Of a stretch of 64,000 nt of DNA, positions 76 through 58,085 are shown one piece after another. A program made the translations under genes and the position numbers. The stretch's first letter is position 1; each line of letters begins with the position of its first letter. This DNA comes from an uncultured virus (IMG/VR IMGVR_UViG_3300038441_002670). Taxonomy: Duplodnaviria > Heunggongvirae > Uroviricota > Caudoviricetes. A model generated the notes under the pieces. The model saw only the letters and a program-made list of their open reading frames with translations. It did not search any database and had not been told where the DNA came from. The DNA is taken from IMG/VR virus record IMGVR_UViG_3300038441_002670, one strand, 5' to 3'.

Positions 76-789
76 ATGCAGACGATCCTCATCTATAGTG
101 GGGGCCTGGATTCCACGACGCTGCTGTACCACCTCCGGGCCGAAGGCCAGACGGTCGCTGCGCTGAGTGTGGATTATGGGCAGCGCCATCGTCAGGAGGT
201 AGTGGCCGCCCAGGCGCTGTGTGCCGCGCTAGGGGTGGAGCACCAGGTCGTCGATCTGCGCGCGGTACGTCCGCTCCTCGCGGGGAGTTCGCAGACGGAT
301 CCCACCGTCGCGGTGCCGCAGGGCCATTATGCCGACCTCACCATGAAGCAGACGGTGGTGCCGAACCGCAATATGCTCCTGCTGGCCCTGGCCGGTGCGT
401 GGGCCGTGAGCCGCCAGGCCGAGGCGATTGCCTATGCCGCGCATGGGGGCGATCATGCCATTTATCCCGATTGCCGCCCGGCCTTCGTGGCCGCGTTCGC
501 GCAGACTCTGGCCCTGGCCAACTGGCACCCGGTCACCGTGCTGGCCCCGTTTCTGGCACTCGACAAGGCGGCGATTGTCCGGCTGGGGGCGTCCCTGGGG
601 GTGCCGTTTGGGCAGACGTGGAGTTGCTACGATCCCCAGACCGACCTCAGCACCGGGCGTACCCTGCATTGTGGGCGCTGTGGCACGTGTTGCGAACGCG
701 CCTTGTCCTTTGATGAGGCAGGCATTGAAGACCCCACAATATATATGGACACAACGTATTGGAAAAGAGTCAGTTTGCCTAAAACATAA
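76..789 (+). CDS. queC: 7-cyano-7-deazaguanine (preQ0) synthase QueC
   Basis: SGGLDS PP-loop, YGQRH, VPNRN, YPDCR and C-terminal CGxCxxC Zn motif. Confidence 0.96.
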
Positions 790-802
790 TGGAAAAGTCC
801 GT

Positions 803-1171
803 ATGTCCTGGCTTCTCCGCAAAACGTTTGGGTTCGAGGCCAGTCATCAGCTTCCGCTGCATGATGGCCCGTGTGCCCATCTCCACGGCCATAGCTATCG
901 CCTCACGGTCGAGGTGTGCGGCGTGACGCTGCATACCACTGGCCCGAAAACCGGCATGGTGGTGGACTATGGCGACATCAGCGCCGCCGTGAAGCCGCTC
1001 CTCGTGCAGGCTCTCGATCACCATGACCTGAATACGTCGCTTCCTGTGGAGACCACCACGGCAGAGATGATCGCGCAGTGGGTGTATGACCAACTCGCGC
1101 CGGTGCTGCCGGGGTTGGTCGCCGTGGTCATTGGGGAAACGGCATCGACTGAGGCCCGCTATGAGCCGTAA
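803..1171 (+). CDS. queD: 6-carboxytetrahydropterin synthase QueD
   Basis: FEASHQL, CAHLHGHSY, GMVVDY, LDHHDLN, TAEMIA and ET motifs; start taken at ATG 803 inside ORF 428..1171. Confidence 0.94.
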   Translation: MSWLLRKTFGFEASHQLPLHDGPCAHLHGHSYRLTVEVCGVTLHTTGPKTGMVVDYGDISAAVKPLLVQALDHHDLNTSLPVETTTAEMIAQWVYDQLAPVLPGLVAVVIGETASTEARYEP

Positions 1172-1778
1172 TGACTTGGTCGTGAATGATATCTTTTACT
1201 CGATTCAAGGCGAGGGGGTCCGTGCAGGTACGATGAATCTCTTTTTGCGCCTGAGTGGTTGCAACGCCACCTGCAATGGCACCATGGAGGATCAAGCCTA
1301 TTTGCCCGTCTGCGACACAGAATTTGTCAGCGGGCGCCGGATGACGTGGGACGCCATCGTGGCCCGGTTTCACGAGCTGGCTCCCGCGTGCCGCTGGGTC
1401 ATCCTCACCGGCGGCGAACCTGCACTTCAGTTGACTCCCGCCTTTACGGCGTATCTTCATGGGCAGGGGTATCAACTCGCCATCGAAACGAACGGCACCA
1501 TCAACGTGGATGCCTTGGGGCTCGACTGGGTCTGTGTCTCGCCCAAGGTGGCGGAGCACGCCATCAAGCAACAGACGGCCAGTGAAGTGAAGTATGTGCG
1601 CAACTATGGCCAAGGCATTCCCAAAACGGTGATCGAGGCCGGGCATTATGTCCTCTCGCCAGCCTTTGAGGGCGAGTATCTCGATCCCAAAACCCTCGCG
1701 TGGTGTCTCCAACTGTGCAAGGATAACCCGACATGGCGCCTGAGTCTTCAGTTGCACAAAGTCTTGCAGGTCCGCTAA
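1161..1778 (+). CDS. queE: 7-carboxy-7-deazaguanine synthase QueE (radical SAM)
   Basis: IFYSIQGEG, FLRLSGCN..C...CDT, TGGEP, IETNGT, VSPK, WRLSLQLHK. Confidence 0.94.
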   Translation: MSRNDLVVNDIFYSIQGEGVRAGTMNLFLRLSGCNATCNGTMEDQAYLPVCDTEFVSGRRMTWDAIVARFHELAPACRWVILTGGEPALQLTPAFTAYLHGQGYQLAIETNGTINVDALGLDWVCVSPKVAEHAIKQQTASEVKYVRNYGQGIPKTVIEAGHYVLSPAFEGEYLDPKTLAWCLQLCKDNPTWRLSLQLHKVLQVR

Positions 1779-2605
1779 TGCTCACCCTGTCCTGGGCCAA
1801 CGTGTATACCCGGCTGCAAGCCGCCCCGCCAGGCCGTCTGTGGGGCATCCCGCGTGGTGGGCAGATTGTCGCGGGCCTCACGGGCCGCGCGGTCGATTGT
1901 CCCGAGGACGCTGATGTGATCGTGGAAGATATTGTCGATAGCGGTGCCACGCGAGACCGCTACCACGCGCTCTATGCCAAGCCCTTTTGGGCGCTGGTCA
2001 CGAAACACCCGGGTGATGGGTGGGTGCGGTTTCCTTGGGAAGCCCATGACGCCACGGCAGACCTGGCCGATACCGTGCGCCGCCAACTGGAATGGATTGG
2101 CGAAGATCCCACCCGGGAAGGCTTACGCGAGACCCCGCAGCGGGTGCTCAAAGCCTTGGGAGAACTCACGGCGGGCTACGGCCAGGACCCGGCGTCGCTC
2201 CTCCAGGTGACCTTTCAAGCCGACTGCGATCAGATGGTGGTTGTGCGCGATATCCCGTATCATAGTTTATGTGAGCATCATCTGCTCCCCTTTCACGGGC
2301 AGGTGACACTCGGCTATGTTCCCAGCGAAGGGCGTGTCGTGGGGTTGTCCAAGCTGCCCCGTCTGGTGCACTGTTTTGCGCGACGCCTCCAGGTGCAAGA
2401 GCGGCTCACGACACAAATTGCCGATGCGCTTCAGGCCATTGTGCGGCCTGCCGGGGTGGGGGTGGCGGTGACAGGCTCGCATACTTGTATGCAGATGCGC
2501 GGCATTCGGTCGAGTGGCGTGATGCTCACGAGTGCGTTGCGGGGGGTATTTCTGGAGAAACCCGAGGCCCGCGCCGAATTTCTCTCTCTCGCCCGGCTGG
2601 CCTGA
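1778..2605 (+). CDS. folE: GTP cyclohydrolase I with an N-terminal phosphoribosyltransferase-like domain
   Basis: C-terminal REGLRETPQR, SLCEHHLLPF, GLSKLPR, RLQVQERLT, HTCMQMRG; N-terminal GIPRGG, VIVEDIVDSGAT, WVRFPWE. Confidence 0.92.
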   Translation: MLTLSWANVYTRLQAAPPGRLWGIPRGGQIVAGLTGRAVDCPEDADVIVEDIVDSGATRDRYHALYAKPFWALVTKHPGDGWVRFPWEAHDATADLADTVRRQLEWIGEDPTREGLRETPQRVLKALGELTAGYGQDPASLLQVTFQADCDQMVVVRDIPYHSLCEHHLLPFHGQVTLGYVPSEGRVVGLSKLPRLVHCFARRLQVQERLTTQIADALQAIVRPAGVGVAVTGSHTCMQMRGIRSSGVMLTSALRGVFLEKPEARAEFLSLARLA

Positions 2606-23809: not shown

Positions 23810-24259
23810 ATGGCCAGCCCGTCCCTGATTGCCCCCGTCGAGGTGGTCCTGGATCGTCCCCGCGTGCTGCGCTTTACGCGCGGGGCGGTGCGACAAGTCG
23901 AGTTGGATCTCACCCGACTGTGGGGCCGTGACTATACGTTTTATGAAGCCATCCGGCGCCTGAGTGAAATGCTGCTCGATAATGACCTGAGCAAGCTCAG
24001 TTATCTCAACATTGCCACGCTGCTCTGGCGCGGCTGTCAGCACGAGGACCCGGGCGTGACGCTGGAGCAGATTGAAGAGGGCTTGCCCTATGCCGACCCG
24101 TCGGGGCTGATCCCCTATGTGGGGCTGATTCTCCAGGCGTGGAACAACGCCACACCCACGGCCCCGGCTTCAGGAGTATCGGAGGCGGCAGAGCGGGACC
24201 CTTTGGACGGATCGACTGGGGCCGCCTCTGGAGCGTTGAGCGCACCTGCCTTGGCCTGA
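23810..24259 (+). CDS. tail assembly chaperone G
   Basis: VLDRPRVLRF; lies between tail tube and tape measure. Confidence 0.8.
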   Translation: MASPSLIAPVEVVLDRPRVLRFTRGAVRQVELDLTRLWGRDYTFYEAIRRLSEMLLDNDLSKLSYLNIATLLWRGCQHEDPGVTLEQIEEGLPYADPSGLIPYVGLILQAWNNATPTAPASGVSEAAERDPLDGSTGAASGALSAPALA

Positions 24260-24600
24260 GTGACGCGGAGTTCTGGGGCCTGACGTTTCTGGAAGGGCAC
24301 TGGCTGATGGAGCAGTACCGACGGCGCGTCGAGCGGGAGCAACGCCCGCTGGCCCTGCTGCTGTGGCACTTTGTCAACGTGCACCGCAACCCGGTGCAGC
24401 AGCGCGAGCCGTTTGCATGGGACGAGGTCCGGGGCTGGCTCGGCTATGCGCCCCTGCCAGACCCTCCCGTTGCGGAGACGCCAGCGCCCGCAGACCCCGT
24501 CGAGCGCATGAGCGCGTTTGTGGCGTATTGGAACCAGATCCCCGATGGCCCCCGCCCGGCAGGCATGCCGCCACCGGATGTGCGGAATGGTACTGGCTAG
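24199..24600 (+). CDS. tail assembly chaperone GT extension (-1 frameshift)
   Basis: Slippery C-CCT-TTG at 24199-24205 into a -1 frame encoding LGLSDAEFWGLT. Confidence 0.75.
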   Translation, partial: PFGRIDWGRLWSVERTCLGLSDAEFWGLTFLEGHWLMEQYRRRVEREQRPLALLLWHFVNVHRNPVQQREPFAWDEVRGWLGYAPLPDPPVAETPAPADPVERMSAFVAYWNQIPDGPRPAGMPPPDVRNGTG

Positions 24601-24612
24601 AAAGGTATAGTC

Positions 24613-27600
24613 TTGGCAGAGATAGTCTTAGGCGATGTAGTAGCAAAGCTACGTGTAGATAACACGCAGTTTACGCAGGCCATGGCCGATGCCGCCCAGC
24701 GCCTCGCCGCCCTGAACCAGGCCCTCGCCCAGACGCGTACGCAGAGTGCCACAACCCAGCAATCGACGCAGCAAGTCGCGCAAGCCTTCCAAGCCCTCAA
24801 CCAGTCGATTCAGCAACAGACGCAAGCCTACACGCAGGCCCAAGGTGCCACCCAGCAATACCGCCAGGCGCAACTGCAACTGCTGGAGGCCATTCGCCAA
24901 CAGCGCCAGGAACAGCAACAAGCCACGCAGGCGACCCAGGCGCAGGGTTCGGCGTTACGCACCGCGTTCTCCATCGCCGGGGGCATTGGCCTGGCGACCA
25001 GCCTCGGGGCCATTGTTGGCCAGATGAAAGAGCTGGCGGTCAGTACCATCCAGGTCGGGGCGCAGTTCCAGCAACTCCGCACGAGCCTTGCGGCGGTGGC
25101 AGGCGGGGCGCAACAGGGCGGACAGTCCTTTCAGTTTCTCATTGAGACCGCCAATCGCTACGGCTTTAGCCTGCAAAGTGTCGCCGGGAGTTACCGGGGA
25201 CTGGCGGCGGCGACGCGGGGCACCAATCTCGAAGGCGAACAGACCCGGCGCATCTTTGAATCAGTGACGGCGGCGGGACGCACGGTCGGGGCCACGTCGC
25301 AGGAGATGGGCCGCATCCTCACTGCCCTCCAGCAGATGGTGTCCAAAGGCGTCGTCTCGATGGAGGAGTTACGCCAGCAGTTAGGCGAGGGCCTCCCGGG
25401 TGCGTTCCAGATTGCCGCCAGAGCCATGGGGGTCACGACCGAACGCTTTAGTCAGATGGTGGCGTCGGGCCAGGTCCTCACCACCGACTTCCTGCCCAAG
25501 TTTGCCCGGCAGTTGCGCGAGGAACTCGGCCAGGGCGCTCAACAGGGGGCTGCGACAGCACAAGCCGCGTTTGCCCGGCTGGAGAATGAGTGGAATCTGC
25601 TGAAAGAGCGGATCGCACGGGGCGGGCCGCTGCGGTTTCTGACGCAAGTCGTGAGTTCCCTGTCCGGCGACCTCGAAGCTGCGCGCCTGGCGGCTGAAGC
25701 GGCCCAAGCCCGGGTCGGTCGGCAGGCGGAGCAAGCCCGCTTCCCGCTCACGCCAGGGGGCCGCCAGCGCCCGGGCACCGTCACCGGGGCGACCGAGGAG
25801 GAACTGGCCCGGCTCCAGGCCATCAATGCAGAATACGATACCCTGCAAAAGCGCATTGCCGAGAATCGCGCGGCGCCCATGCAGGGCATCCCAGGACTGC
25901 AACAGGTCCAAGAAGCCCTGCGACAGCGGCTGGAACAACAGGCCACCGCGTTAGAGCGTGAACAACGGGCCTTGCAGCAGACGATTGCCGCCCGGCGCTT
26001 TGGCCAGCAAGGTGTCGGTGCCCGCACCTCCGGGGTGGCCGAGGACCCCACCGAGCAAGAACGCGAGCGTCTCAAGGGCATCGAGGAAGGTCGCAAGCGC
26101 GTCAATGACCGGCTGGATGAGACCAAGCAGAAGCTCAAAGAGGTCAATGACCTCAATCGGATCGCCCCGGAGCGCTTGGGCGATACTCAGAACAAGGCCG
26201 ACCAGCAAGTCGCCATCCTGAATAGTCGCCTCAAAGAACAACAAGAGGGCCTCAAGAAGGCGGCAGAAGAGGCGTTGAAGCTCGGTACGGCCATTGACGA
26301 GACGACGCAGAAGAATCTGGACAAGGCCCGCAGTGATGTGCGCGCCACCGAAGGCCAGATCAAAGCGATTCAAGATCAGGAAACCGCGAGGGAGAAGGCC
26401 GAGCGCAAAGCCGCCCAAGATGCCGCGGCGGCGGAGCGACGCGCGGCCCAGCAGGTCGAGCAGGCCAAACAGCAAGTCCTCACGCTGGATGCCTTCCAGG
26501 AACGGCTGGGCGCCTTCATGCGACGGCCCGAGGAAGGGCGGGCGGAGGAGGCTGCCAGTCGTATTCGCGTGCAGGGCGCGGCGATCCAGCGCGAGTTGGA
26601 AACCCAAATCCTGGCTCTGGAAAAGTCACCCGCTTTCCAGGCCGGTCGTCCCGGCGCGCTCGATGCGTTGCGCAGCCAGCGGGAGGCGCTCACCCAGAGT
26701 ATTAACGTCCAAGCGGAGGAAGCCTACACGGCGGCGCTGACCAAGCAGATGGGCACGCTCGATGAGTTAGCGCGGAAGTATGGCTTTGTCACGCAAGAAG
26801 CGAATGATCTCGCCCGGGCCGAGAAAGAAGCCGAGCAGTTTCAAGGCACGCCCTTGCAGGAGCAGGCGAAGGAACGTCTGCAAGTCGTTCGCGACGTGGC
26901 GACGGTCGAAGCGCAGATTGTGGATCTGAAGCGGCAGGCGGCGGCCAGTGAACGGGCTGGTCTGGAGGCCATGAAAGAGGCCCGAGCGAGTACGGCCTTT
27001 GACGCGACCCTCACGGAGCAACTCGAACGCTTGCGCGCCCCCCGCGAGGAACGTACGGAACTCCGTCTTCGTGCGCAGGCGCGGAAGCAGAGTCTCGACC
27101 TCACGCCGGACCAGGATGCCCAACTCCGCGCCATTACCGAGCAGGAGCGCCTCAATGAGGCCCTGGAGCTGACCCGACGCCTGGGTGAGGGCGTCAGTCA
27201 GTCCCTCGCAGATGGGCTCCTCAGCATTGCGGACGGCACCAAAAACGTCAGCGAGGCGTTTGAGCAGATGGCCAAAAACATCATCGAGAATCTTGCCAAA
27301 ATCGCCATTAGTGAAGGCTTCCAGGCCCTCCTCAAGATTGGTCTGAAGGCGCTCGGCGGCGCGCTCAGCGGCGGGTCAGGCTTTTCCGATGCGGGGGCGA
27401 GCGCAGGCGGCGGGGCGGCGGGCTTTGAGATTCTCATGGCGCAATCAGGCGCGGTTGTGAATCGGCCCACGCTGATGATGGTGGGAGAAGGCGCCTACAA
27501 CCCAGAGGTGATCCTGAATAGGCCACAGCTCAACTCGCTCGTCCAATCCGCGATGCAAGCTGGCCCGAGCGCGGGCGGTCAAGCCGCTGGAGGGGCGCAC

Positions 27601-27759
27601 GTCACAGTGATTAATGTCGCGGACCGTGCCGAGGGGGAGCGCCGTGCCGCTCAGGAAAGGAGCCTCGGCAGGCAGGTCGTAATAAACTATGTCATGGATG
27701 AACTCGCCCAGGGATCAGGATCACGCATCGGTCAGGTTCTGCGCAATGGGCAAAGGTAA
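24613..27759 (+). CDS. tape measure protein
   Basis: 1048 aa, Ala/Gln-rich helical; ALQQMVSKGVVSMEELRQQLGE tape-measure domain; GE..PE C-terminal motif. Confidence 0.93.
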   Translation: MAEIVLGDVVAKLRVDNTQFTQAMADAAQRLAALNQALAQTRTQSATTQQSTQQVAQAFQALNQSIQQQTQAYTQAQGATQQYRQAQLQLLEAIRQQRQEQQQATQATQAQGSALRTAFSIAGGIGLATSLGAIVGQMKELAVSTIQVGAQFQQLRTSLAAVAGGAQQGGQSFQFLIETANRYGFSLQSVAGSYRGLAAATRGTNLEGEQTRRIFESVTAAGRTVGATSQEMGRILTALQQMVSKGVVSMEELRQQLGEGLPGAFQIAARAMGVTTERFSQMVASGQVLTTDFLPKFARQLREELGQGAQQGAATAQAAFARLENEWNLLKERIARGGPLRFLTQVVSSLSGDLEAARLAAEAAQARVGRQAEQARFPLTPGGRQRPGTVTGATEEELARLQAINAEYDTLQKRIAENRAAPMQGIPGLQQVQEALRQRLEQQATALEREQRALQQTIAARRFGQQGVGARTSGVAEDPTEQERERLKGIEEGRKRVNDRLDETKQKLKEVNDLNRIAPERLGDTQNKADQQVAILNSRLKEQQEGLKKAAEEALKLGTAIDETTQKNLDKARSDVRATEGQIKAIQDQETAREKAERKAAQDAAAAERRAAQQVEQAKQQVLTLDAFQERLGAFMRRPEEGRAEEAASRIRVQGAAIQRELETQILALEKSPAFQAGRPGALDALRSQREALTQSINVQAEEAYTAALTKQMGTLDELARKYGFVTQEANDLARAEKEAEQFQGTPLQEQAKERLQVVRDVATVEAQIVDLKRQAAASERAGLEAMKEARASTAFDATLTEQLERLRAPREERTELRLRAQARKQSLDLTPDQDAQLRAITEQERLNEALELTRRLGEGVSQSLADGLLSIADGTKNVSEAFEQMAKNIIENLAKIAISEGFQALLKIGLKALGGALSGGSGFSDAGASAGGGAAGFEILMAQSGAVVNRPTLMMVGEGAYNPEVILNRPQLNSLVQSAMQAGPSAGGQAAGGAHVTVINVADRAEGERRAAQERSLGRQVVINYVMDELAQGSGSRIGQVLRNGQR

Positions 27760-28758
27760 CGAGCGAGAAATATGGAGCCATGTACGGTAATGCAAGACAT
27801 CGGATATAGCCCCCATACTTACCTGCAAGGTGTGGGCAATGGTTTCGAGGGTCTGTCCCTGCCGTCGCCATTCAAAAATCTGGGCAATGTTGTCCTTGCG
27901 CAGCTTGGCAAATGGACTTGTTTCTCCGCGCCGTCTCTTCGTCCATCTTTTACGCGCAACAGCCTCACCCATATTGGCGCGGGGGGTTGCACTATGAACG
28001 TGGACGGGATTGCAGCACGGCGGGAAATCGCACCAATGAGCGGCTTGATGTTTCGGTGGCATCGGGCGTTGATGGAAGGTTTCCCACAGCATACGTGTAG
28101 CATAGCGCAGTTTCGCCCCTGTGGCTTCTCTTGCGACAATGGTTCCGTAGCCATTGCGATCCCTGGCTCCTTGCCACGGAAAGCAGCAGTAAATACAGTC
28201 CTTCCCGTGCACGCAAACCTCAATGTTGTTCCACAACCGTTGTTCCAGCGACAAGCACGAGCATTCATAGGAACAATATTTCCGCTTTCGCTCTTTATAC
28301 AGCACAGTAAACGGCTTACCACAGAAGATATTTTGACAGGTCTTTTTCAGACGCTTCTCAAGCTGTCCTGCGTCTCGACAACTTGGCGAACAATAGCGCC
28401 GTGCCGTTTGATGTTTTCGCTGCGATCTCAACCCTCTGAGCATGACCGTGCAGGCAGGATTTTGGCAGGGCCATTCTTCCCACCGGCTCGCGTTCTCCAC
28501 AGCTTTGGCAGCAAGGTAGCACGCGCGGGAGCAATATTTGATGCCCTTGGTCATTTCCCCTTGGGTGGCGGTAAAGACTCTTCCACACGCAGGGTTTTCA
28601 CACATGCGTTGGACGTGCGTCTGCATGCCCTGAAGCGTCTTTACGGCATAGTGACAGGCTTGCGAGCAGTATTTGCCACCACCTGCTTTAAGCTGGGATG
28701 GGGGAACAGTAAAAAAACAACTACACGTAGGATTCTGGCAGATACAACGTACTGGCAT
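27721..28758 (-). CDS. HNH endonuclease with four N-terminal Cys-rich repeats
   Basis: Four C.N..C...YCS..C repeats; WQGARDRNGYG, AHWCDFPPCCNPVH, C-terminal HTH. Confidence 0.88.
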   Translation of the reverse strand: MPVRCICQNPTCSCFFTVPPSQLKAGGGKYCSQACHYAVKTLQGMQTHVQRMCENPACGRVFTATQGEMTKGIKYCSRACYLAAKAVENASRWEEWPCQNPACTVMLRGLRSQRKHQTARRYCSPSCRDAGQLEKRLKKTCQNIFCGKPFTVLYKERKRKYCSYECSCLSLEQRLWNNIEVCVHGKDCIYCCFPWQGARDRNGYGTIVAREATGAKLRYATRMLWETFHQRPMPPKHQAAHWCDFPPCCNPVHVHSATPRANMGEAVARKRWTKRRRGETSPFAKLRKDNIAQIFEWRRQGQTLETIAHTLQVSMGAISDVLHYRTWLHISRSLPLPIAQNLTDA

Positions 28759-28900
28759 GAAACTCAACCTCCACTTGTTGAGAAGCGCTCCACATATAGG
28801 GCGCGGCCCAGTGTGGAAGCTGGTTTTTCAGGCGGTCATGACTCCGCCCTAGCCGCAACACAGAGTATAACATATAGATGATGAGCTTTGTATAGTTCAA

Positions 28901-29482
28901 ATGGCGATATATCCGTTGTCACCAACACCGTCGAGCATCAGCGCCGCAGCAATTATAGATCCAATGCACCAGTTCCAGACCGATTCGGGGTACGAAATCA
29001 GGCGTCCCATGCACAGCCGAGGCCGTCGCCAGTTTCAGGTCTCGTACCTGAACCTGAATGCCGCCGAGATGCGCGTGATCCGTGATTTCTTCCAGACGCG
29101 CCGCGCCGGTGCCCTCGACTTTGAGTGGCTGCACTCCACCGCCTTTGACACCGTGACCTACACCAATACCAGCCCGGTCGTGTGTGTGCTGCAACATAGC
29201 TACCAGACGGGTCAGATCGTGTGGATCAATAGCAGCGTGCCCAATACGAGCCTCAATGGCTTTTGGACGGTGCAGCGGATTGACCCCACGTCCTTTGCGC
29301 TTGCGGGCTCCAACGCGGGCGGGCCGGGCTCGTGCAACGTCGTGACGTACCTGCCGCATGCCATCGGACGCTTTGCGGACGGCGTGATGGAATCTCCGAT
29401 CAAATTACTCGGGCCTGAAACGAATAATCTTGATAGACGCACTGCATTTCAAATGAGTGTAATTATCGAGGAACTGCTTTAA
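28901..29482 (+). CDS. distal tail (gpM/Dit-like) protein with FCCH-like insertion
   Basis: DSGYEIRR, RRQF..SY, FF..R.G...F.W; inserted HSYQTGQIV...LNG.W.V..ID segment. Confidence 0.75.
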   Translation: MAIYPLSPTPSSISAAAIIDPMHQFQTDSGYEIRRPMHSRGRRQFQVSYLNLNAAEMRVIRDFFQTRRAGALDFEWLHSTAFDTVTYTNTSPVVCVLQHSYQTGQIVWINSSVPNTSLNGFWTVQRIDPTSFALAGSNAGGPGSCNVVTYLPHAIGRFADGVMESPIKLLGPETNNLDRRTAFQMSVIIEELL

Positions 29483-29499
29483 GTCGAGGAGAGAAACTC

Positions 29500-30007
29500 G
29501 TGCCACGATTGCTTTCAGCGGCGTCGATTAGAGAGAAAAATCAATTACAATCAGATCACGTACTGAGCATGTTATTCCAGTTAGATATACCAAGCACTCC
29601 ATCGCCATATCGTCTGGCGCATGCGGATCAGGATATTGTCTTTCATGGCTTAACGTTTCTCAGATTCCCGGTGAATCTTTGACTCGCTCGAAGACGCGAA
29701 CTCCCTGACCCTCACGCGCCTGCGCATCACAGCAGGGAACGTCGATCAGGGCTTCCAATCCTTGCTGGAGACGTACTGGGGGCCAGCCACGGTCTGGACC
29801 GCTACCATCTGGCAGGTCGATCTGATGCAGCCAGACGAGACGCCCTTTGCGGCAGGAGAACTCTTTACCGTGATGCAGGTGGCGACCGACTTTGTGAGCG
29901 CGGTTATCGACGTGCAGGCAGAAGGTATTACTCTTTCTGGAACTATGCCCAAGCGACGCTACACAGCTAGTTCTGGTTATCCTAATATTCCTAGAAGGTT
30001 GCTATGA
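29500..30007 (+). CDS. tail tip protein (gpL/DUF1833-like), requires a +1 frameshift at CTT-TGA-C (29677-29683)
   Basis: ORF 29500..29682 joins the +1 frame of ORF 29762..30007 (open from 29681), giving about 168 aa ...RFPVNL-DSLEDANSLTLTRLRITAGNVD... Confidence 0.75.
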
Positions 30008-30399
30008 GTACCGTCGCCATGCCAGACCTCGCAGCCCTGGTTGATCCGATTTTGGGGCTCCCATACGAGCAGTACCATTGCTGGAACCTGGTGCGCTACT
30101 TGTTTGAGCAGGGGTGGGGCATTCAGTTTGACGATGATCCGGCGCACGCCCTGGCGCAGGTTGAGGAAATCTGGTTCGTCGGTGACACCACGGACCCACT
30201 GACGCTGACCCAACCGTGGGACTGTTGGATTATGCGGACGAAAGGGATCGCCTCCAGTCATGTGGGCATTGTGCTGGATACGCAGTCTATGGTGCACACG
30301 CGCAAGGCGATTGGCGTGTGCTTGGAGCCACTGAAAGCATGGGCACCACCACGCTCGACCCGGTTGATGCAAATTGCGCGCCTGAAGCGCCTGCGCTAG
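30004..30399 (+). CDS. NlpC/P60-like tail tip protein (gpK-like)
   Basis: GLPY...CWNLV and HVGIV....MVH catalytic motifs. Confidence 0.85.
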   Translation: MSTVAMPDLAALVDPILGLPYEQYHCWNLVRYLFEQGWGIQFDDDPAHALAQVEEIWFVGDTTDPLTLTQPWDCWIMRTKGIASSHVGIVLDTQSMVHTRKAIGVCLEPLKAWAPPRSTRLMQIARLKRLR

Positions 30400-33300
30400 C
30401 CACTGTCGCCTGTCTCCTGGTGCTGTCGCCGCTGCCAGGGCGTGATGGCCGCCTACGCACCCGCTGCGAGCAGTTCCCGGCGGGCGATCCCTTAGAGGCG
30501 TATCTGCCTGAAGGAGAAGCCCTGGCGCGGGTGTGTATCAACGGCGGCATCATTGCCCCGGAGCACTACGCCCACGTCATCCCCAGGGCAGGCGATGAGA
30601 TCTGGCTGTGGCCTGCGTGGGAGGGGGTGGAAATCTGGCTCCCGCTCGCCTCGATTGCCCTGAGTCTCCTCCTGACGACCGCCTCCCACTTCCTCTTTCG
30701 TCCCAAGCCCCTGCTCCTCCCCCAGCAGCCCCAGATGACCGGGGAAACCGAACGCACGTTTAGCTTTGAGGGCATTCGTACGGCGATCGGTCCGGGCGGC
30801 GTTGTCCCCGTAGTCTATGGGCGGCACCGCATTGGCGGCCAGCTCCTCCTCGCCACCGTGGATCATGTGGCCACCGTGATTGATGACGGCATCAGCAGCC
30901 CTGGCGTGGCCATTGTCGCTGTGGGCCACGGCGAGCCCTCCGACATTGTCTTTGTGACGGCGCCCGGTCATGGCTTTGCCACCGACCAGACGATCCTGAT
31001 TGAAGGCGTCCAGGGTAAAACGGCGGTCAATCGGCAGTGGACGATTGCTGTCGTGGACAATGACACGTTTGTGCTCAAATTCTCGTGGGGTGTGGGCTTC
31101 GACCAACCCTATCTGGGCGGCGGCACCGCCCGCCTGCAAAACGTGGGGGCGCGTAGCTATCAGGCCGTCACCAACCCGCCCACCTTGTCGCTGATGATGG
31201 CCCTGTGCGAAGGCCCGATTGACGCCATCCTCACCGAGACGATCCAGATTAACGGCCAACCCCTGGCGAATTTCCCCGGCGTGCAGGTGTATACGGGTCT
31301 GGGCGAGGCGAACCAACCGGCCATTGCCGAGTTTGGCGGGGCGCGTAACACGTTCAGCGATGGCCGGGAGTTGCTGGTAGAGACCCCGCTGACCTACACG
31401 AGTAATGGCATCTTACATGCGTTTACACTCAATTTCACGTTCGCGGAAGGGCTCTACTTTCTCGATGCCAAGGGCGAGAAAAACTCCAATGCCGTGACCC
31501 TGCGCTACCGCTATGCGCTCACGGGCACGGGAGCCTGGTCCGCCTGGTCGCAGTTTCAGGTGGGGGCGGATCGCACAGCCACCGTCCGCATCGGCGTGCG
31601 CCGTGAGGGGCTCATGCTGGCCCAGTACGATATTCAGATGGAGTTCGTGCACGTCCTCAACAACGATGAGTTGCGCTCGCGCTACCGCCCCTCACTCGAA
31701 AGTGTGACGGAACACCTGCCGGAAACGTACGCCTATCCCCACACCGTCATGCTCGGCTTGCGCGCGGTCGCCACCGACGCCTTGCGGGGGGCGCTCCCCA
31801 ATATTACCGTCGAGGTGCGCGGGCGGCGCGTGCGCGTCGGCACCCTGGCTCCGGTGGAGACGTGGAGTGACAACCCGGCCTGGTGCATGATGGATGCGCT
31901 CACCAATACGCGCTATGGCCGCGGCGTGTCCGATAGCGAGATCGACCTCACGTCCTTTAGCGTCTTCGCGGCCTACTGCGCGGAAACGATTGCCGGGGAA
32001 ACCCGCCACACGCTCAACTATGTCCTCGACCGCGAGACGCGGGCGCAGCAGTTTTTCCTCGAAACGATGGGCGGGGCGCGGGGTTTGCTCCTCAAGTCGG
32101 CCGGCCAGTGGCAAGCGCGGCCCACCCGCCCGGAGACGCCGACATGCCTCCTCTCCTGGGCCAGTGTGAGTAATGTGCGCCTCACGTATCTGCGCGATGC
32201 CGATAACATCAATGTCCTCGAAGCCCGCTTTGCCAATGAAGACCAGGACTACGAACAGGATGTGCAGACCTGGCCCACGATTGACCAGTGGCCCCCCGAA
32301 ATCCACAAGCAGAGTCTCGACTTGCGCGGCATTACCAAGCCCTCGCGGGTGCAGCGGGCACTCCAGTTTGAACTCAATCGGCGGCGCTATGAGAATGTCC
32401 AGTTAGAGATGGACTGCTCCCCCGAAGCCCTCCCCATGCAACTGCATGACCTCTTTCGCTTTGCCCACCCGCTCCCCGGCTGGGGTGTCTCAGGGCGCAT
32501 TATGCCAGGGTCCACGAATGCGATCCTCCAGGTGGATGAGGACTGCCTGATCGAGTTCGGGCTCTATTACTGTGTCTACGTGCGGCATGAAGATGACACA
32601 ATCGAGATGCGCAATATCATCAACATTGTGGTGGGCTCCGTGCGGACGCTCTATCTCCAGACCGTGCTGAACCAGACACCCGCGCCGCGCACCGCCACGT
32701 GGGTGTTTGGGCGGCTGGCACCGGATTTCGTGACGGATGCCTCGACGCGCACCTTTCGCGTGACGAACCTGCAACGCCGCTCCGATACCACGGTCCATGT
32801 CGAAGCCATCATCCATAACCCGGCGATCTATGATGAGCCCACGGCGACACCCCTACCCCCCATCACGACGCTGTTTAACCCGCTGGGGCCTCCCCCGCCG
32901 CTCACGATCCTCATAGCGACCGAGGCCACCCGGGTGCAGGCCAGTGGCGCCAGCTTGCGGGTGGTCAACCTGTCGTGGGATGTGGCGGAGTTGAGTAGCG
33001 CTTATGCGCCCTATGCCGGGGCGACCATTCTGCGCCGGACGGTCCTGGTGAGTGGCACGATGGGGCAAGCCCAGGCGGGCGCGATTGCCTTCGGGGCGAT
33101 CAGCGACCCGAACGACCCCAATATCAACTATATCCAGCTCACGCAGGTGCGTGGGCATGTGCTGGACTGGGATGACTATACGGTGGTCAGCGGGGCGACG
33201 TACCAGTATCGGGTGATCCCGGTGTCGAGCCTCGGGGTGCCGAACAACGCGGGCTCCCGCGAGGTCCTGATCCATGTGGCCGGGCCGACCACGCCGGGCT

Positions 33301-35651
33301 ATTATCCGGGCACGGTGCGCAATTTGCGCCTTAAAGGCCAACCGGTGGGGGCGACGATCTGGGAAGGCCGTGATGTGCATGTGGAGTGGGACCGCGTCGC
33401 CGACAGTCCGCTCTTTAGCGAGACGTTTTTTGTCCAAGAGTATATCGTGCAGGTGTGGGCGCCCGGCCAGGTCTATCTGCTGCGCAGTTTCAGTGTGCCG
33501 CTTCAGCCCGTGGGCCAGTCCGCCCAGTTTACCTATACGCGGGCGCAAAATGAAGAGGATCAGATTCATGCGGGCTTTGCCGGGGCGCGGCGCGACCTGC
33601 AAATTATGGTGTGGGCCCGCACCAATACCGGGGCAGAGTCGCTGGTGCCTGCCATTATCGTGGTGACGAATCCGCCCCCGGACATGAGTGTCATTGATCT
33701 CGACATTACGCCCCTCGCCACGAGTGTGGCGATCAAGTGGAATCAATGGCGGGAGCCGCGCGACTTCGAGCGCTACGAGCTCTACCTTGATGTGGTCGAT
33801 CCACCCATCGCCATTTATCAAAGCGTCAGTGCGCTCACCGATACGGCGGGCATTCAGGGGCTGACTCCTGGCGTTACGTACTATACCTATGTGCTCCCTT
33901 ATGATACCTTCGGACCTGGCATCCCCACGTTTACTGAGTCGTTTGTCCCGTTTGGCTTCGACCTGACCTTACTGGAGAAAGACCCGCCAGGCGTGCCAAC
34001 CGGCTTGACGCTGACGACGGGGACGGACATCAGCCAGGACGGGACGATTGTGCCATGGGTGCAGGCCCAGTGGAACCACAACCCGGAAGCCGACTTGCGC
34101 GGCTATCAACTCTCGTTTCGTATTGAGCCCAGCAACGGCGGAGCGCCCACGGTTGTGCATGCCGCCGCTGGGGATACCCGCTACCGCATGAACGTGCCAG
34201 GGGCGCTCACCATTTTCTGTAAAATTGCCGCTGAAGACCGCTTGAGTAACATCAGTGCCTATAGCGCGGAGGTCCAGATTACCAGTGGCCGGGATACGGT
34301 GGCACCCGGGCCATGTAGCAATTTGACGATTATTGGCTCGACACAAAAAGTCCACCTGCTTTGGACCCCGTCGATCAATGCCCCGGATTATGCCTATGCG
34401 GAAGTCTTTGCCTCCGCCACCAACAATCTCGCCAATGGGGGCATCGTCGGGCAAGGCCAGTTCAGCTATGAGCATGCCGGATTCACGGCCAATCAGACCG
34501 TGTATTTCTGGGTACGAGCGGTGGACACCTCGGGCAATAAGAGCACCTTTTTTCCGGCCTCGCCGACCGCCGGGGTCCCCGGCACGGCAGGGCAACTCGA
34601 TACGACCTACATCTCGTCGCTGGCCGCCGACAAGATCATTGCAGGCATCATGACAGCCCTGGTCAAAATTGGCGTGGCCGGGATGATCGACCTGGATGGC
34701 CCGAACCAGCTCATTACCGTCAAGGAGTCCCAAACCGGCAACGCGCGCGTCTACATGGGACGCCTGGGGACTCTGGGCACCGACTGGGGTTTGATGGTGC
34801 TCGACGCCGCCGGGCGCATTATGTTTGATGCCCGCGACTCGGGCGTGACCGCCTTTGGCATCAAGACGGGCGCGATTCAGGCCGGGCATATCACCACCAC
34901 GACTGCGGTCATTACCGCGGCGGCGCAAATTGCCTTTGCAATCATTACTGATGCCCATATCACCAACTTGTCGGCGAGTAAAATCCAGGCTGGCACGGTC
35001 GCGGCTCAGGTCTTTTGGGGCACGGCGGCCAACGGCGTCGGCACGCATATCGTTCTCGACGGGGTCAACCATAATATCGTCATCTATGACGATGTCGGCC
35101 AGCTCCGCACCGTCATGGGGAACTTCGGCGGCAATTACGGCTTTTATGCCTTTGCCCCCGATGGGACCCTCATGTGGGACTCGGTCAACGGCGCCACCAC
35201 GCGCGGCATTGGTAACGATACCATTACGACCGTGAAAATCGTCAACGAGACCATCACGACCGTGAAAGTGGCGGATAACGCCATTACCAATAGCGTGCAG
35301 TATGTGGATGACACGACGCTCAGTGTCACGACGAGCGAAACAGCAGCCGCGAGCCTCGTCTTTGACCTCAATACGAACGATCAAGTGCTGATGTGGGCCA
35401 TGGGCACGGGTGCCAACACCGGCACCAGCGCCCTCACTATTCGCATCCGGCTCGACTCGGTCGGCGGGGGAGAAATTGCCTACGGCCAGTATGGCGGGGC
35501 CGGGAAATCGACCGTTGCCACGCAAGCCGTCTACACCCATACGGGGGCGCCCGGCGTGCGCGCCTTTGTGTTCACCATGCACAATGGCGGCGGCAGTGAT
35601 ATCGTCGCGCTCGATCATCGCAAATTTATCGGCATTCGGAGACAAAAGTGA
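30339..35651 (+). CDS. central tail tip / host specificity protein (gpI-gpJ fusion) with Fn3 domains
   Basis: N-terminal ubiquitin-like VCINGG..GDEI, VPVVYGRHRIGG, LCEGPI, WSDNPAW, YG, Fn3 repeats (VRAVDTSGNKS); start uncertain. Confidence 0.88.
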   Translation: MGTTTLDPVDANCAPEAPALATVACLLVLSPLPGRDGRLRTRCEQFPAGDPLEAYLPEGEALARVCINGGIIAPEHYAHVIPRAGDEIWLWPAWEGVEIWLPLASIALSLLLTTASHFLFRPKPLLLPQQPQMTGETERTFSFEGIRTAIGPGGVVPVVYGRHRIGGQLLLATVDHVATVIDDGISSPGVAIVAVGHGEPSDIVFVTAPGHGFATDQTILIEGVQGKTAVNRQWTIAVVDNDTFVLKFSWGVGFDQPYLGGGTARLQNVGARSYQAVTNPPTLSLMMALCEGPIDAILTETIQINGQPLANFPGVQVYTGLGEANQPAIAEFGGARNTFSDGRELLVETPLTYTSNGILHAFTLNFTFAEGLYFLDAKGEKNSNAVTLRYRYALTGTGAWSAWSQFQVGADRTATVRIGVRREGLMLAQYDIQMEFVHVLNNDELRSRYRPSLESVTEHLPETYAYPHTVMLGLRAVATDALRGALPNITVEVRGRRVRVGTLAPVETWSDNPAWCMMDALTNTRYGRGVSDSEIDLTSFSVFAAYCAETIAGETRHTLNYVLDRETRAQQFFLETMGGARGLLLKSAGQWQARPTRPETPTCLLSWASVSNVRLTYLRDADNINVLEARFANEDQDYEQDVQTWPTIDQWPPEIHKQSLDLRGITKPSRVQRALQFELNRRRYENVQLEMDCSPEALPMQLHDLFRFAHPLPGWGVSGRIMPGSTNAILQVDEDCLIEFGLYYCVYVRHEDDTIEMRNIINIVVGSVRTLYLQTVLNQTPAPRTATWVFGRLAPDFVTDASTRTFRVTNLQRRSDTTVHVEAIIHNPAIYDEPTATPLPPITTLFNPLGPPPPLTILIATEATRVQASGASLRVVNLSWDVAELSSAYAPYAGATILRRTVLVSGTMGQAQAGAIAFGAISDPNDPNINYIQLTQVRGHVLDWDDYTVVSGATYQYRVIPVSSLGVPNNAGSREVLIHVAGPTTPGYYPGTVRNLRLKGQPVGATIWEGRDVHVEWDRVADSPLFSETFFVQEYIVQVWAPGQVYLLRSFSVPLQPVGQSAQFTYTRAQNEEDQIHAGFAGARRDLQIMVWARTNTGAESLVPAIIVVTNPPPDMSVIDLDITPLATSVAIKWNQWREPRDFERYELYLDVVDPPIAIYQSVSALTDTAGIQGLTPGVTYYTYVLPYDTFGPGIPTFTESFVPFGFDLTLLEKDPPGVPTGLTLTTGTDISQDGTIVPWVQAQWNHNPEADLRGYQLSFRIEPSNGGAPTVVHAAAGDTRYRMNVPGALTIFCKIAAEDRLSNISAYSAEVQITSGRDTVAPGPCSNLTIIGSTQKVHLLWTPSINAPDYAYAEVFASATNNLANGGIVGQGQFSYEHAGFTANQTVYFWVRAVDTSGNKSTFFPASPTAGVPGTAGQLDTTYISSLAADKIIAGIMTALVKIGVAGMIDLDGPNQLITVKESQTGNARVYMGRLGTLGTDWGLMVLDAAGRIMFDARDSGVTAFGIKTGAIQAGHITTTTAVITAAAQIAFAIITDAHITNLSASKIQAGTVAAQVFWGTAANGVGTHIVLDGVNHNIVIYDDVGQLRTVMGNFGGNYGFYAFAPDGTLMWDSVNGATTRGIGNDTITTVKIVNETITTVKVADNAITNSVQYVDDTTLSVTTSETAAASLVFDLNTNDQVLMWAMGTGANTGTSALTIRIRLDSVGGGEIAYGQYGGAGKSTVATQAVYTHTGAPGVRAFVFTMHNGGGSDIVALDHRKFIGIRRQK

Positions 35652-38226: not shown

Positions 38227-38733
38227 ATGCAACGATGGCTGATCCTGCTCGGTCTCTTCCTGGGGAGTGTCGGGGTCGCCCTGGCGGCGGTGACCCCCGG
38301 CAGTATTGTGACACTCCAGGCACCTGCGGTGGGGATGGTGCAGTTCCTCCAGGGTACGGATAACGCGGGCACCTACAAAACACTCTTTACCGCAGGCGTC
38401 GGGGGCACGGCGAGTTCGAGCGGCTCCAAATGTAATGCCATGTGGTTGACGACCGATGATGGGACGGCCACGCATCTTGTGACGGTGCAGGTGTCGCGCG
38501 GCGGCATCCGCTATGGCGGGGTGGCGGTGGCGACGACGCTCGGGCAGGGCTTTGTGAATGGCACGCCGCCGCTGAACCTTTTCGCGCCGACCATTTGGCC
38601 TGGCTTGCCCCTGGATAGCGACGGCAATCCCTATCTGCAACTCATGGCAGGCGATCTGATTCAGGCCACCTTTGCCACGGCCCTGACAGCGGCGACCCGG
38701 ATCAGTATCGTAGTGAGCTGTGGTGATTACTAA
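38227..38733 (+). CDS. signal-peptide beta-rich protein
   Basis: MQRWLILLGLFLGSVGVALA|A. Confidence 0.7.
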   Translation: MQRWLILLGLFLGSVGVALAAVTPGSIVTLQAPAVGMVQFLQGTDNAGTYKTLFTAGVGGTASSSGSKCNAMWLTTDDGTATHLVTVQVSRGGIRYGGVAVATTLGQGFVNGTPPLNLFAPTIWPGLPLDSDGNPYLQLMAGDLIQATFATALTAATRISIVVSCGDY

Positions 38734-38737
38734 CGGG

Positions 38738-38766
38738 TTGATTTGTACTATGGATTATGGTATAAT
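38738..38766 (+). promoter_or_regulatory. sigma70 promoter of the EndoVII gene
   Basis: TTGATT-N17-TATAAT with extended -10 TG. Confidence 0.8.
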
Positions 38767-38845
38767 GGCAACACTACAAACGCACTGCCCTGTCGCACGA
38801 ACGACAGGGACAGCACTAACCATACGCTCTGGAATGGAGAGACGC

Positions 38846-39376
38846 ATGGCTACCTCTCAGCTTACCCTATTTCCTAAGCCACTTCTACGCGAGAAACGTT
38901 GTTGTACTTGCAAGGTATGGTTGCCGCTAGAGAAATTTGGCCGCAACAAAGCACGACCAGACGGACTTCAGGACTACTGCGCAATCTGTCACAGGGCCGC
39001 AGTGAAGCGCTACTATGACAAGACTCCAGGGGCGAAAGAGCGTGCCAAAGCCGTTTCGGCTGCGTGGAATAAAGCGAATTACGAACGAAGAAAGCGTATA
39101 GAGCTTCGGAGCAAACTTAAAGAAAAAGGTTTGACGATGGAGCAGTACGACGAAGCCATAATTCGTCAAGAAGGTGGTTGTGGGATTTGTGGCGAAAAGG
39201 AAAATCGCCATACACTTCAGACACGTCTTGTTATTGACCATGATCACGTCACCGGGAAATTTCGGGGTTTGCTCTGCCATAACTGCAACGTGTCTCTAGG
39301 TCTTATGCGTGACAATATTGAGCTACTAGAGCGAGCCATTGCCTATCTCAAAGTATCGCAGGAGAGTCCCTTATGA
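38846..39376 (+). CDS. endonuclease VII-like HNH protein
   Basis: CGIC, LVIDHDHVTGKFRGLLCHNCN.LG. Confidence 0.92.
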   Translation: MATSQLTLFPKPLLREKRCCTCKVWLPLEKFGRNKARPDGLQDYCAICHRAAVKRYYDKTPGAKERAKAVSAAWNKANYERRKRIELRSKLKEKGLTMEQYDEAIIRQEGGCGICGEKENRHTLQTRLVIDHDHVTGKFRGLLCHNCNVSLGLMRDNIELLERAIAYLKVSQESPL

Positions 39377-56157: not shown

Positions 56158-56472
56158 TTAGTGTTCATGGGATGTCCTTTCAGCGAGGATCTGAAGTTTC
56201 GCCAGCGTTGTCTGGCCGAGCATGCTCGCGGGCACCAAGACGTCGCCCTGGAGTAGGCGCAGGAGATACTGCGCTTCGGCGGGCGTTACGGTCGGGTGCG
56301 GTGCGGGCGTGGGCAGGGCATTCCACACGGCGCCGCAATGCGGGCACGTACAGAGGAGCCAGGTGCCCTGTGTCGTCAGTCGGCTGACGACGTCCGCGAC
56401 GGTCTGCTGACAGGCCATGCACCGGGCGTGAGTAGCACTTTTAGGAGGGTTCATCTTTCGTGTTCTCCACAC
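56158..56472 (-). CDS. Zn-ribbon hypothetical protein
   Basis: CxxC...CPHC motifs. Confidence 0.45.
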   Translation of the reverse strand: MWRTRKMNPPKSATHARCMACQQTVADVVSRLTTQGTWLLCTCPHCGAVWNALPTPAPHPTVTPAEAQYLLRLLQGDVLVPASMLGQTTLAKLQILAERTSHEH

Positions 56473-57115
56473 AGAAGAGCGGCAATGTCTCTACGCTCAA
56501 TGCTTGCTGAGCCTGTAAGTTTGCATGGTGTGCAAGATAGCGCCGGGCTGCGCGTGACCACTCTGACTTCTCAAGATTGCCGAGTCTCAAATTGCATCGC
56601 GTACAGAGGAGCCCGCGTACGACACCTGTGGTGTGATCATGATCAACCGCAAGAGATCTGGTGTATTCGGGACGTCCACAAATCGCACAGGCACCACCTT
56701 GGGCATTGAAGAGTGTTTCATAGGCCTCTAGCGTGATAGCAAATCTGCGGCGTAGCCAACCCTGCCGCTTTATACGCTCTGTGCGCTCTGGGTCGCGTTC
56801 GTCCCGTTGCTGTCGTAGCTTTTTTACACAATCCCGGCATTGCCCTCGATGTTTCCCGGTTTTCTTGTCAAAAAAGAAGACTTCCCATGGCAGCATCGTT
56901 TGGCACGAATTACATAGCCGCTTGGTGCCATCTTCAGAAATAGGGATAAAAGGCCACTTCACGACGTGAGGATCGCCATGACGTTTCCAACGGTAGTAGT
57001 GTTTCTGACAATAACCAAAAGAAGCCCATGGCGTAGAACAGCCATCAACAAGACACGGCGCACCAGTCTTCGGTCGGTTTGCGGGAGGTGGTGTGATAAA
57101 CTTAGAGATAGCCAT
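56441..57115 (-). CDS. endonuclease VII-like HNH protein
   Basis: C.VDGC...GYCQKHY.RW.RHGDP; CAIC, LAVDHDHTTGVVRGLLCTRCN. Confidence 0.92.
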   Translation of the reverse strand: MAISKFITPPPANRPKTGAPCLVDGCSTPWASFGYCQKHYYRWKRHGDPHVVKWPFIPISEDGTKRLCNSCQTMLPWEVFFFDKKTGKHRGQCRDCVKKLRQQRDERDPERTERIKRQGWLRRRFAITLEAYETLFNAQGGACAICGRPEYTRSLAVDHDHTTGVVRGLLCTRCNLRLGNLEKSEWSRAARRYLAHHANLQAQQALSVETLPLFCVENTKDEPS

Positions 57116-58085
57116 GGCACCTGTGCTCCTATCACAGCGTGAAATGGTTAGAGTCCTAGCAGTGTGTCGAGCACTACTAGGACTTGTTTTTTGTAGCCTA
57201 CAGTATAACATATTTTAGCACCACATAAGAATAAAAATACAAAAATTTCAAATAGTTATGCGTCCCTGGGTGGGTTCATCGTGCCCTCCTCTCAGGCATG
57301 GGTCTGGTGATACTGGTGGCAGTAGGGACAGCGGTATACCTTCGCCTTCCTGGGCTTGTGCCGCTGCTGCTGCTGCGCCTGGAGGACGCGATGCGCCGCC
57401 TGGGCGCTCGGGTAGGCGATCTTGCCCGCGCACCCGCTCGTGGGATCAGTCGGGAGCGCGTCGGGGGAGGCCGTGAGTCTCATGAGAAGGGCTCCTCTAG
57501 AAGCCGAGGGGGAGTTGGCGCGGGTCCGCGTCTTCCGTGCTCGGTGCGTCCTGGCAGCGGTGACAGACCGTGATGCCGGGCCACGCATAGGGCTGGACCC
57601 GTGCCCATTCCGCCTCGGTGACGCTGGTACAGGCGGCCTTGGGGCCACGGCCGAACGCACAGAGCCAGGTGAGGTCGCGGCCCAGGAGCGTCTGGACCCG
57701 GGTGCGGGCGCGGTGGGAGGCGAGCGCGATGTTCATGATGCGGCCTCCTTCGCGTCTTGGGGGTGGCGTTCCCACACGACCCCGCCGGACGCCGCGCGAT
57801 AGGGATTGGTCGAGCCCCACAGGATGCCGCAGTGGGGGCATTCCATCAGCGTCACCTGCTCCAAGTCGGGACTCTGCCGCAGCGTGGCCGTGGTTACGAC
57901 CGCCCGGCAGGCATGGCACCGCGCCTGCCTCGGCTCGTGCGCTGGCACGATGGCCGTGTTCTCCGGGTTGCAGCGCTCGCATAGGCTGCCAGCCAGCGCC
58001 AGGGTTTCCTCCTGGCACGAGGGACACCGAAGCAGGACGGGCTCGGCGGGTGCGGCGGTCGGGATGTGGAGATGCGTGCGATGCT

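Follow-up and report, generated by a model that had tools for sequence, protein, structure and literature searches.

The stretch of DNA analysed here (the window; 64,000 nucleotides) derives from an uncultured soil siphophage and carries, among its tail genes, an open reading frame that ends after 60 codons with the UGA of a CUU UGA C heptamer, while the remainder of the protein is encoded in the +1 frame. CUU-UGA-C is a textbook +1 frameshift site, and a first-pass annotation made from the letters alone had proposed a site of the prfB type in a tail-tip gene. The question raised by this locus is whether ribosomes slip at the heptamer to make one full-length protein, or whether the gene is inactivated, divided into two products, restored at the RNA level or merely misassembled. 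The features on which the argument depends are listed below in coordinates of the window.

24613..27759, plus strand: tape measure protein (PF20155, E=1.4e-36)
28901..29482, plus strand: DUF2460-like tail gene in the M / GTA g12 position (PF09343, E=1.2e-4, below the cut-off)
29500..29682, plus strand: ORF1, frame 0; GTG start behind GAGGAG; the first 60 codons for the L-like tail-tip protein, closed by UGA
29668..29683, plus strand: 16-base core CCG GTG AAT CTT TGA C, with the same letters in the diverged relative L018
29670..29674, plus strand: weak SD-like GGUGA, derived from conserved Pro-Val codons, 2-3 nt upstream of CUU
29672..29674, plus strand: TGA in the +1 frame, read directly from the sequence
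29677..29683, plus strand: shift heptamer CUU UGA C, the putative slip site; the continuous gene of L001 has CTT GAC
29681..30007, plus strand: ORF2, +1 frame; residues 61-168 of the L-like protein and the stop
30004..30399, plus strand: NlpC/P60 gene in the position of lambda K (PF00877, E=1.8e-5); its start overlaps the ORF2 stop
30216..35651, plus strand: J-like tip/host-specificity protein (PF13550, E=5.4e-6)

In frame 0, the plus strand reads CCG (29668-70) GTG AAT CTT (29677-79) TGA (29680-82) C (29683), exactly the site that had been annotated. The +1 frame was likewise correctly followed to its stop (30005-07), but its upstream limit, set at 29681 in the annotation, needs to be moved: the frame is open from 29675, being bounded by its own TGA at 29672-74, and a productive shift is therefore confined to positions 29675-29682. 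The earliest ATG, GTG or TTG of the +1 frame, a TTG, lies at 29762 (ORF 29762..30007, 81 aa), and the listing of open reading frames bears out the earlier statement that no obvious independent start precedes it. The stop of ORF2 overlaps the ATG of the NlpC/P60 gene (ATGA) in the window and in L018 alike. Decoding TGAC as a single aspartate yields a protein of 168 amino acids (P0003) with no cysteines. The hexamer CTTTGA occurs 37 times on the two strands of the window, and at 29677 only is it flanked by long open frames rather than lying in mere gene interior; moreover, among 1504 distinct single-base insertions into the continuous homologue L001, one makes CTT-TGA-C the first in-frame stop. 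On the scan of the 37 sites and the insertion count, the site is beyond chance expectation. No downstream RNA structure was detected at the shift site (z = -0.29), and no phage tRNAs, suppressors included, were found in the window. The GC content, 61% over the window, is markedly lower at 29380-29660 and 29920-30005, i.e. at the ends of the L-like gene and in the intergenic sequence, and the GC3 of ORF1 is 0.41; these AT-rich ends may be mosaic or recombination boundaries.

A similarity search with the joined protein P0003 retrieved, from 147 candidates, 84 proteins with E<=1e-3; almost all are continuous, with lengths of 166-169 aa. The best match, P0004, is a continuous homologue of 168 aa with 89% identity at 100% coverage, and the alignment runs without a gap across the junction, where homologues show FPV(T/N)L-D(S/A)LED; residues 1-60 of the window protein correspond to the N-termini of the continuous forms. 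The continuous product expected on joining the two frames is thus confirmed. Its assignment as 'L/DUF1833-like' stood in the first half only. Against Pfam, the window protein matched no family at E<=10, Phage_tail_L (PF05100) and DUF1833 (PF08875) included, and the search of PHROGs assigned it to phrog_396, 'minor tail protein' (E=1.9e-4). Among 68 relatives searched against Pfam, weak matches to Phage_tail_L were obtained for 11 (best E 3.4e-5), matches to the baseplate-hub N-domain family PF09931 for 13 and a match to DUF1833 for a single one (E=0.16). The structural comparison was made with the AlphaFold model of P0004 (pLDDT 77.2), the continuous homologue mentioned above and not the read-through protein of the window itself. 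Foldseek aligned this model with gpL-type chains at E-values from 5.7e-7 to 1.9e-3 and query TM-scores of 0.57-0.64, namely with the tail chain F of Sf11 (9occ_F, E=5.7e-7), gpL of lambda (8iyk_L, E=4.1e-6, query TM 0.64), the tail-tip chain of phage T1 (9l9p_J, E=5.6e-6) and RcGTA (6tba_7A, E=1.9e-3). The predicted fold and the gene order support the identification of the split gene as one for a lambda gpL-type tail-tip protein, the order TMP, M-like, L-like, NlpC/P60 and J-like being common to lambda and the window. The two proteins differ in length (232 aa in lambda vs 168 aa in the window). Lambda gpL has a C-terminal cysteine-ligated Fe-S domain, which is absent from the cysteine-free read-through product. 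In the model of P0004, residues 58-63 form a predicted beta-strand of a single gpL-like domain, and it is this strand that the break interrupts.

The stretch was listed for 19 soil-metagenome runs, none of the 19 recorded as RNA, and four of them (X1-X4) were compared with the window. A contig of 411 nt from run X4 (depth 11.5) spans 29541-29951 with no differences and no gaps; X4 comes from a different sample and study than X1, which is probably the source run of the window. The contig from X1 stops at 29597, X2 contributed a 55-nt piece elsewhere and X3 nothing, so that the shift site is covered by X4 only. With the X4 contig and the same break in L018, described below, the extra T is present in the DNA and is not an assembly slip. 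A second contig in run X4, 151 nt long, has 12 differences over 132 nt (29260-29391, in the upstream gene), and a related strain thus co-occurs in that sample.

DNA of relatives was available for 50 loci from three collection scans, 49 of which were matched in tblastn. The frame change is absent from 47 of the 49 (three of the 47 being clipped at contig ends) and present in two, L018 and L020; the CTT-TGA-C allele is, therefore, a minority within the gene family. In L018, the match leaves frame 1 immediately after residue 60 and continues in frame 2; the sequence there reads AAA TTT CCG GTG AAT CTT TGA CGC. The two DNAs share 74.7% identity over 1159 nt, and their codons already differ within 7 nt before and 2 nt after the 16-base core. 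Such flanking differences, together with the overall divergence, indicate that the break in L018 is neither a chimeric assembly nor part of a long recombination tract. L018 also has a four-codon insertion relative to the window (863-890, around YW-MPTPWSPEPW) in the part encoded in the +1 frame, and the frame stays open. The nearest continuous relatives with DNA, L001 and L002 (85% protein identity), read CCG TTG AAT CTT GAC, with one T fewer. Further records are known at the protein level: P0089 and P0090, two members of one cluster and each 60 aa long, terminate after Leu60 (final residues FPVTL and FPVNL, respectively), and P0088, P0091 and P0092 are downstream ORFs called separately. The first-pass annotation had suggested looking among homologues for a conserved CTT-TGA-C break; it recurs in L018 as DNA and, as far as protein ends can tell, in P0089 and P0090, and is not the rule in the family, as the 47 loci demonstrate.

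The other frame-changed locus is of a different kind. Around 1440-1450, L020 lacks one G of the G5 run present in the intact gene of L010, the two being otherwise separated by 1 mismatch in 500 nt; unlike the window site, this looks like an isolated error or a recent mutation. Three further candidates for split genes (P0057, P0078 and P0066) were dropped, as members of their clusters (P0093, P0094 and P0095) are continuous across the junction, and two C-terminal fragments known as proteins only (P0084 and P0086) were not counted as split genes. Searching IMG/VR with the exact 16-mer gave 10 hits, about chance level, with none of the 10 homologous (best tblastn E=0.038), and a degenerate pattern of the break and the next five codons gave 19 hits, again with none homologous.

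Between the window and L018, dS amounts to 0.94 and dN to 0.098 (omega 0.10). For the downstream part in the +1 frame, omega is 0.09 (Sd 46.5/80.7 sites, Nd 22.5/243.3), and over the 27 codons that immediately follow the site and precede any start codon it is 0.066. Judged from this comparison of codons, the +1 frame is under purifying selection. Codons at which translation might restart are not conserved: the TTG at 29762 of the window is TTA in L018, and GTG and ATG of L018 correspond to ATC and GGG in the window. In the protein tree, the window and L018 fall inside an unresolved polytomy of 12 rows together with continuous forms, and in the AU test the grouping of the two as one clade is neither rejected nor established (p=0.385). 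Possible histories of the break are a single old insertion, independent insertions, or very short gene-conversion tracts. If the insertion was single and old, the omega values are direct evidence for translation of the +1 frame from then on; under independent insertions or conversion, the same 1-in-1504 insertion must have arisen repeatedly or been retained, and a filter in favour of this site would be implied. With two independent recent insertions the dN/dS ratio would be uninformative on the time since the break.

The state of the DNA, its recurrence in a second sample and in a diverged lineage, the protein restored without a gap, the fold and the selection on the +1 frame are observations, to which we would add the following mechanism. 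The reading that we favour, and consider fairly probable on sequence grounds, is that the inserted T is tolerated, or 'corrective', and that an RF2-type +1 slip allows ribosomes to make the full-length 168-aa protein. An ancestral CTT GAC would have become CTT TGA C by a heritable insertion of one T, moving residues 61-168 into the +1 frame. With UGA-C, a poor termination context, in the A site, the peptidyl-tRNA-Leu would slip from CUU to UUU, and GAC (Asp61) would be the next codon read, the mechanism being that of bacterial prfB; ribosomes that terminate instead would release a fragment of 60 residues. A tail-tip protein is required in only few copies per virion, so that slippage of a few per cent could suffice. 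The allele would lower the output of the L-like gene and, probably, that of the translationally coupled NlpC/P60 gene, since the overlap of the ORF2 stop with the NlpC/P60 ATG makes it likely that a smaller flow of ribosomes reduces NlpC/P60 output as well. We infer the slippage, its efficiency and any dependence that it may have on the level of RF2. A regulatory role of the site in sensing RF2 would be speculation, and with 47 of 49 relatives continuous, a tolerated or corrective indel is a better fit than a long-standing device dedicated to regulation.

The main rival to a +1 slip is a dead allele: the T would inactivate the gene in defective genomes, either cryptic prophages or genomes complemented by co-infecting phages, and the likeness to prfB would be incidental. 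The mostly continuous relatives, the unremarkable SD-like element (see below) and a common origin of the window and L018 alleles that the polytomy and the AU test leave unestablished all agree with this explanation. Nevertheless, it would have to account for an identical insertion, one in 1504, in two backgrounds 25% apart in DNA and in further haplotypes, for CTT-TGA-C being the assembled allele in two samples, for neighbouring structural genes that are all intact, for the low omega of the downstream frame and for the lack of an integrase among the 55 ORFs scanned against PHROGs, and we regard it as unlikely, if deserving of serious weight. Much less probable is a truly split gene, in which the N-fragment of 60 aa and a separately initiated C-fragment assemble non-covalently; separate downstream ORFs have indeed been called among the protein records, but the candidate starts differ between the window and L018, the 27 codons ahead of the first start are strongly purified and the break lies within a beta-strand of a single domain.

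An error of sequencing or assembly, with a surplus T in the T run, was the alternative named in the first-pass annotation. The contig from run X1, ending short of the site, leaves room for it; it is contradicted by the independent contig from X4, identical over the site, and by L018, a diverged sequence from another data set in which the insertion recurs, and a TTT run is not error-prone, so that an artefact is hardly credible. We consider equally far-fetched that the frame is restored at the RNA level, by slippage of RNA polymerase or by editing, or that a -2 shift takes the place of the +1 ribosomal slip. Both formally fit the frames, with no specific support, but the T run is only three long, and a -2 shift should add a residue where homologues align without a gap and would require tRNA-Leu to re-pair on AUC, as can be reasoned from the sequence.

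An internal SD element had also been annotated upstream of the presumed slip codon. GGUG(A) does lie at the distance given, but its strength does not single it out: the duplex with a generic anti-SD motif was calculated at -4.9 to -6.0 kcal/mol, a strength equalled at 11% of 6680 in-frame positions in the long genes of the phage. Furthermore, we reason that GGUG(A) of the window base-pairs with CACC in the anti-SD and not with CCUCC, a part other than that used by the prfB element. According to the sections on prfB in a recent study, shifting at CUU UGA C in Escherichia coli prfB is about 50% and is nearly abolished by SD substitutions, shifting in Flavobacterium johnsoniae is about 7%, apparently without a contribution of the SD, and the SD has been lost from the prfB site in many clades (PMC10798248).

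The window shares the heptamer CUU-UGA-C with bacterial prfB, and in both genes a conserved protein continues in the +1 frame; likewise, a short zero-frame product is presumably discarded, and a purine-rich element lies upstream, which in the window is the weak GGUG 3 nt before CUU. The differences concern function and distribution. The product of prfB is RF2 itself, while that of the window gene is a tail-tip protein, so that there is no autoregulatory loop, and the prfB site is near-universal, while the window site is polymorphic within its family. In the RECODE entries covered by the pertinent part of PMC10885494, every case of +1 shifting at CUU-stop is a prfB gene, and our full-text search of the literature returned no report of a phage gene with CUU-UGA +1 shifting.

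Two other groups of known cases bear comparison. 'Corrective' or 'savior-indel' frameshifting is a recognised class which, in the section of the review devoted to it, consists mostly of mitochondrial cases, the G-run of herpesvirus thymidine kinase being another and endosymbionts being placed under the same heading (Atkins et al. 2016, PMC5009743). As characterised there, this class shares with what we propose for the window an indel, relative to a continuous ancestral gene, that is compensated in translation, and a non-shifted product that is useless; the window would differ from the cases described in that the best-characterised +1 site of bacteria arises from the indel itself, in a structural gene of a dsDNA phage. 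The same review, in its passage on Listeria phages, describes a +1 frameshift at CCC_UGA in the tail shaft gene tsh of PSA, A118 and A500 (PMC5009743). A +1 slip at a P-site codon adjoining UGA in a phage tail gene would be common to tsh and the window. In tsh, as described, the shift occurs near the 3' end and gives a second, extended product beside the main one; in the window the slip codon is CUU and the shift would be obligatory for any functional product.

If slippage does occur, the RF2 site works outside its autoregulatory setting, and a one-base indel can be tolerable, or even usable to turn down a structural protein needed in low copy number. 'Pseudogene' calls at such heptamers in viral metagenomes could then be wrong, and the locus, as a compact natural cassette whose SD is weak, would lend itself to studies of SD-independent +1 shifting. 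A broader proposition, which we put forward as doubtful, is that CUU-UGA-C is a recurrent, selectable translational gate in phage genes, where insertion of a T at CTT-GAC leads to slip-dependent, RF2-titrated expression at a low level; in this family, where free-standing HNH homing endonuclease genes crowd the module, the insertion could also protect a nuclease target site or spread by co-conversion.

The tail-tip genes are arranged in the order tape measure, HNH gene (minus strand), DUF2460-like gene, L-like gene, NlpC/P60 and J-like. The HNH gene, encoding a cysteine-rich endonuclease (27721-28767, minus strand), lies between the tape measure and DUF2460-like genes. In the flanks of relatives (L003-L048), HNH genes with 25-38% identity occupy varying positions around the three tail-tip genes, sometimes two per locus, and the region resembles a hot spot for homing endonucleases. 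An HNH gene lies at most 1 kb upstream in both frameshifted loci, but many continuous loci carry one too, in varying positions. A specific link between HNH genes and the break was considered and dropped, because continuous loci carry such genes as well and the HNH proteins of the window and L018 are only 36% identical. Endonuclease VII/HNH-like genes at 38720-39376 (plus strand) and 56441-57211 (minus strand) have a GC3 of 0.46 vs approximately 0.7 in their neighbours and are likely further mobile nuclease genes.

The window encodes terminase, portal, scaffold, major head protein, adaptors, tail proteins, fibres and a helicase, and, the split gene aside, the genes of the structural module are intact. 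The L-like protein had no tblastn match among 50,697 records of cultured phages, and the capsid protein is less than 60% identical to that of each of 280 matching phage records; the phage has, therefore, no close cultured relative. A scan of genome contigs gave a single weak match of 18 residues (L021), and hence no host assignment.

Just before the tape measure gene, two overlapping ORFs (23810-24259 and 24139-24600, plus strand), the second in the -1 frame, share a candidate slippery heptamer, C CCT TTG, at 24199-24205; the overlap within 23810-24600 is probably the usual G/GT frameshift of the tail assembly chaperone. Adjoining the terminase gene, QueD-like and GTP cyclohydrolase genes (428-2605, plus strand) suggest a pathway of 7-deazaguanine DNA modification. 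After the tail fibre gene, the segment 40818-46380 (plus strand) encodes a Laminin_G_3 protein and two large right-handed beta-helix proteins, which may be tailspikes or depolymerases.
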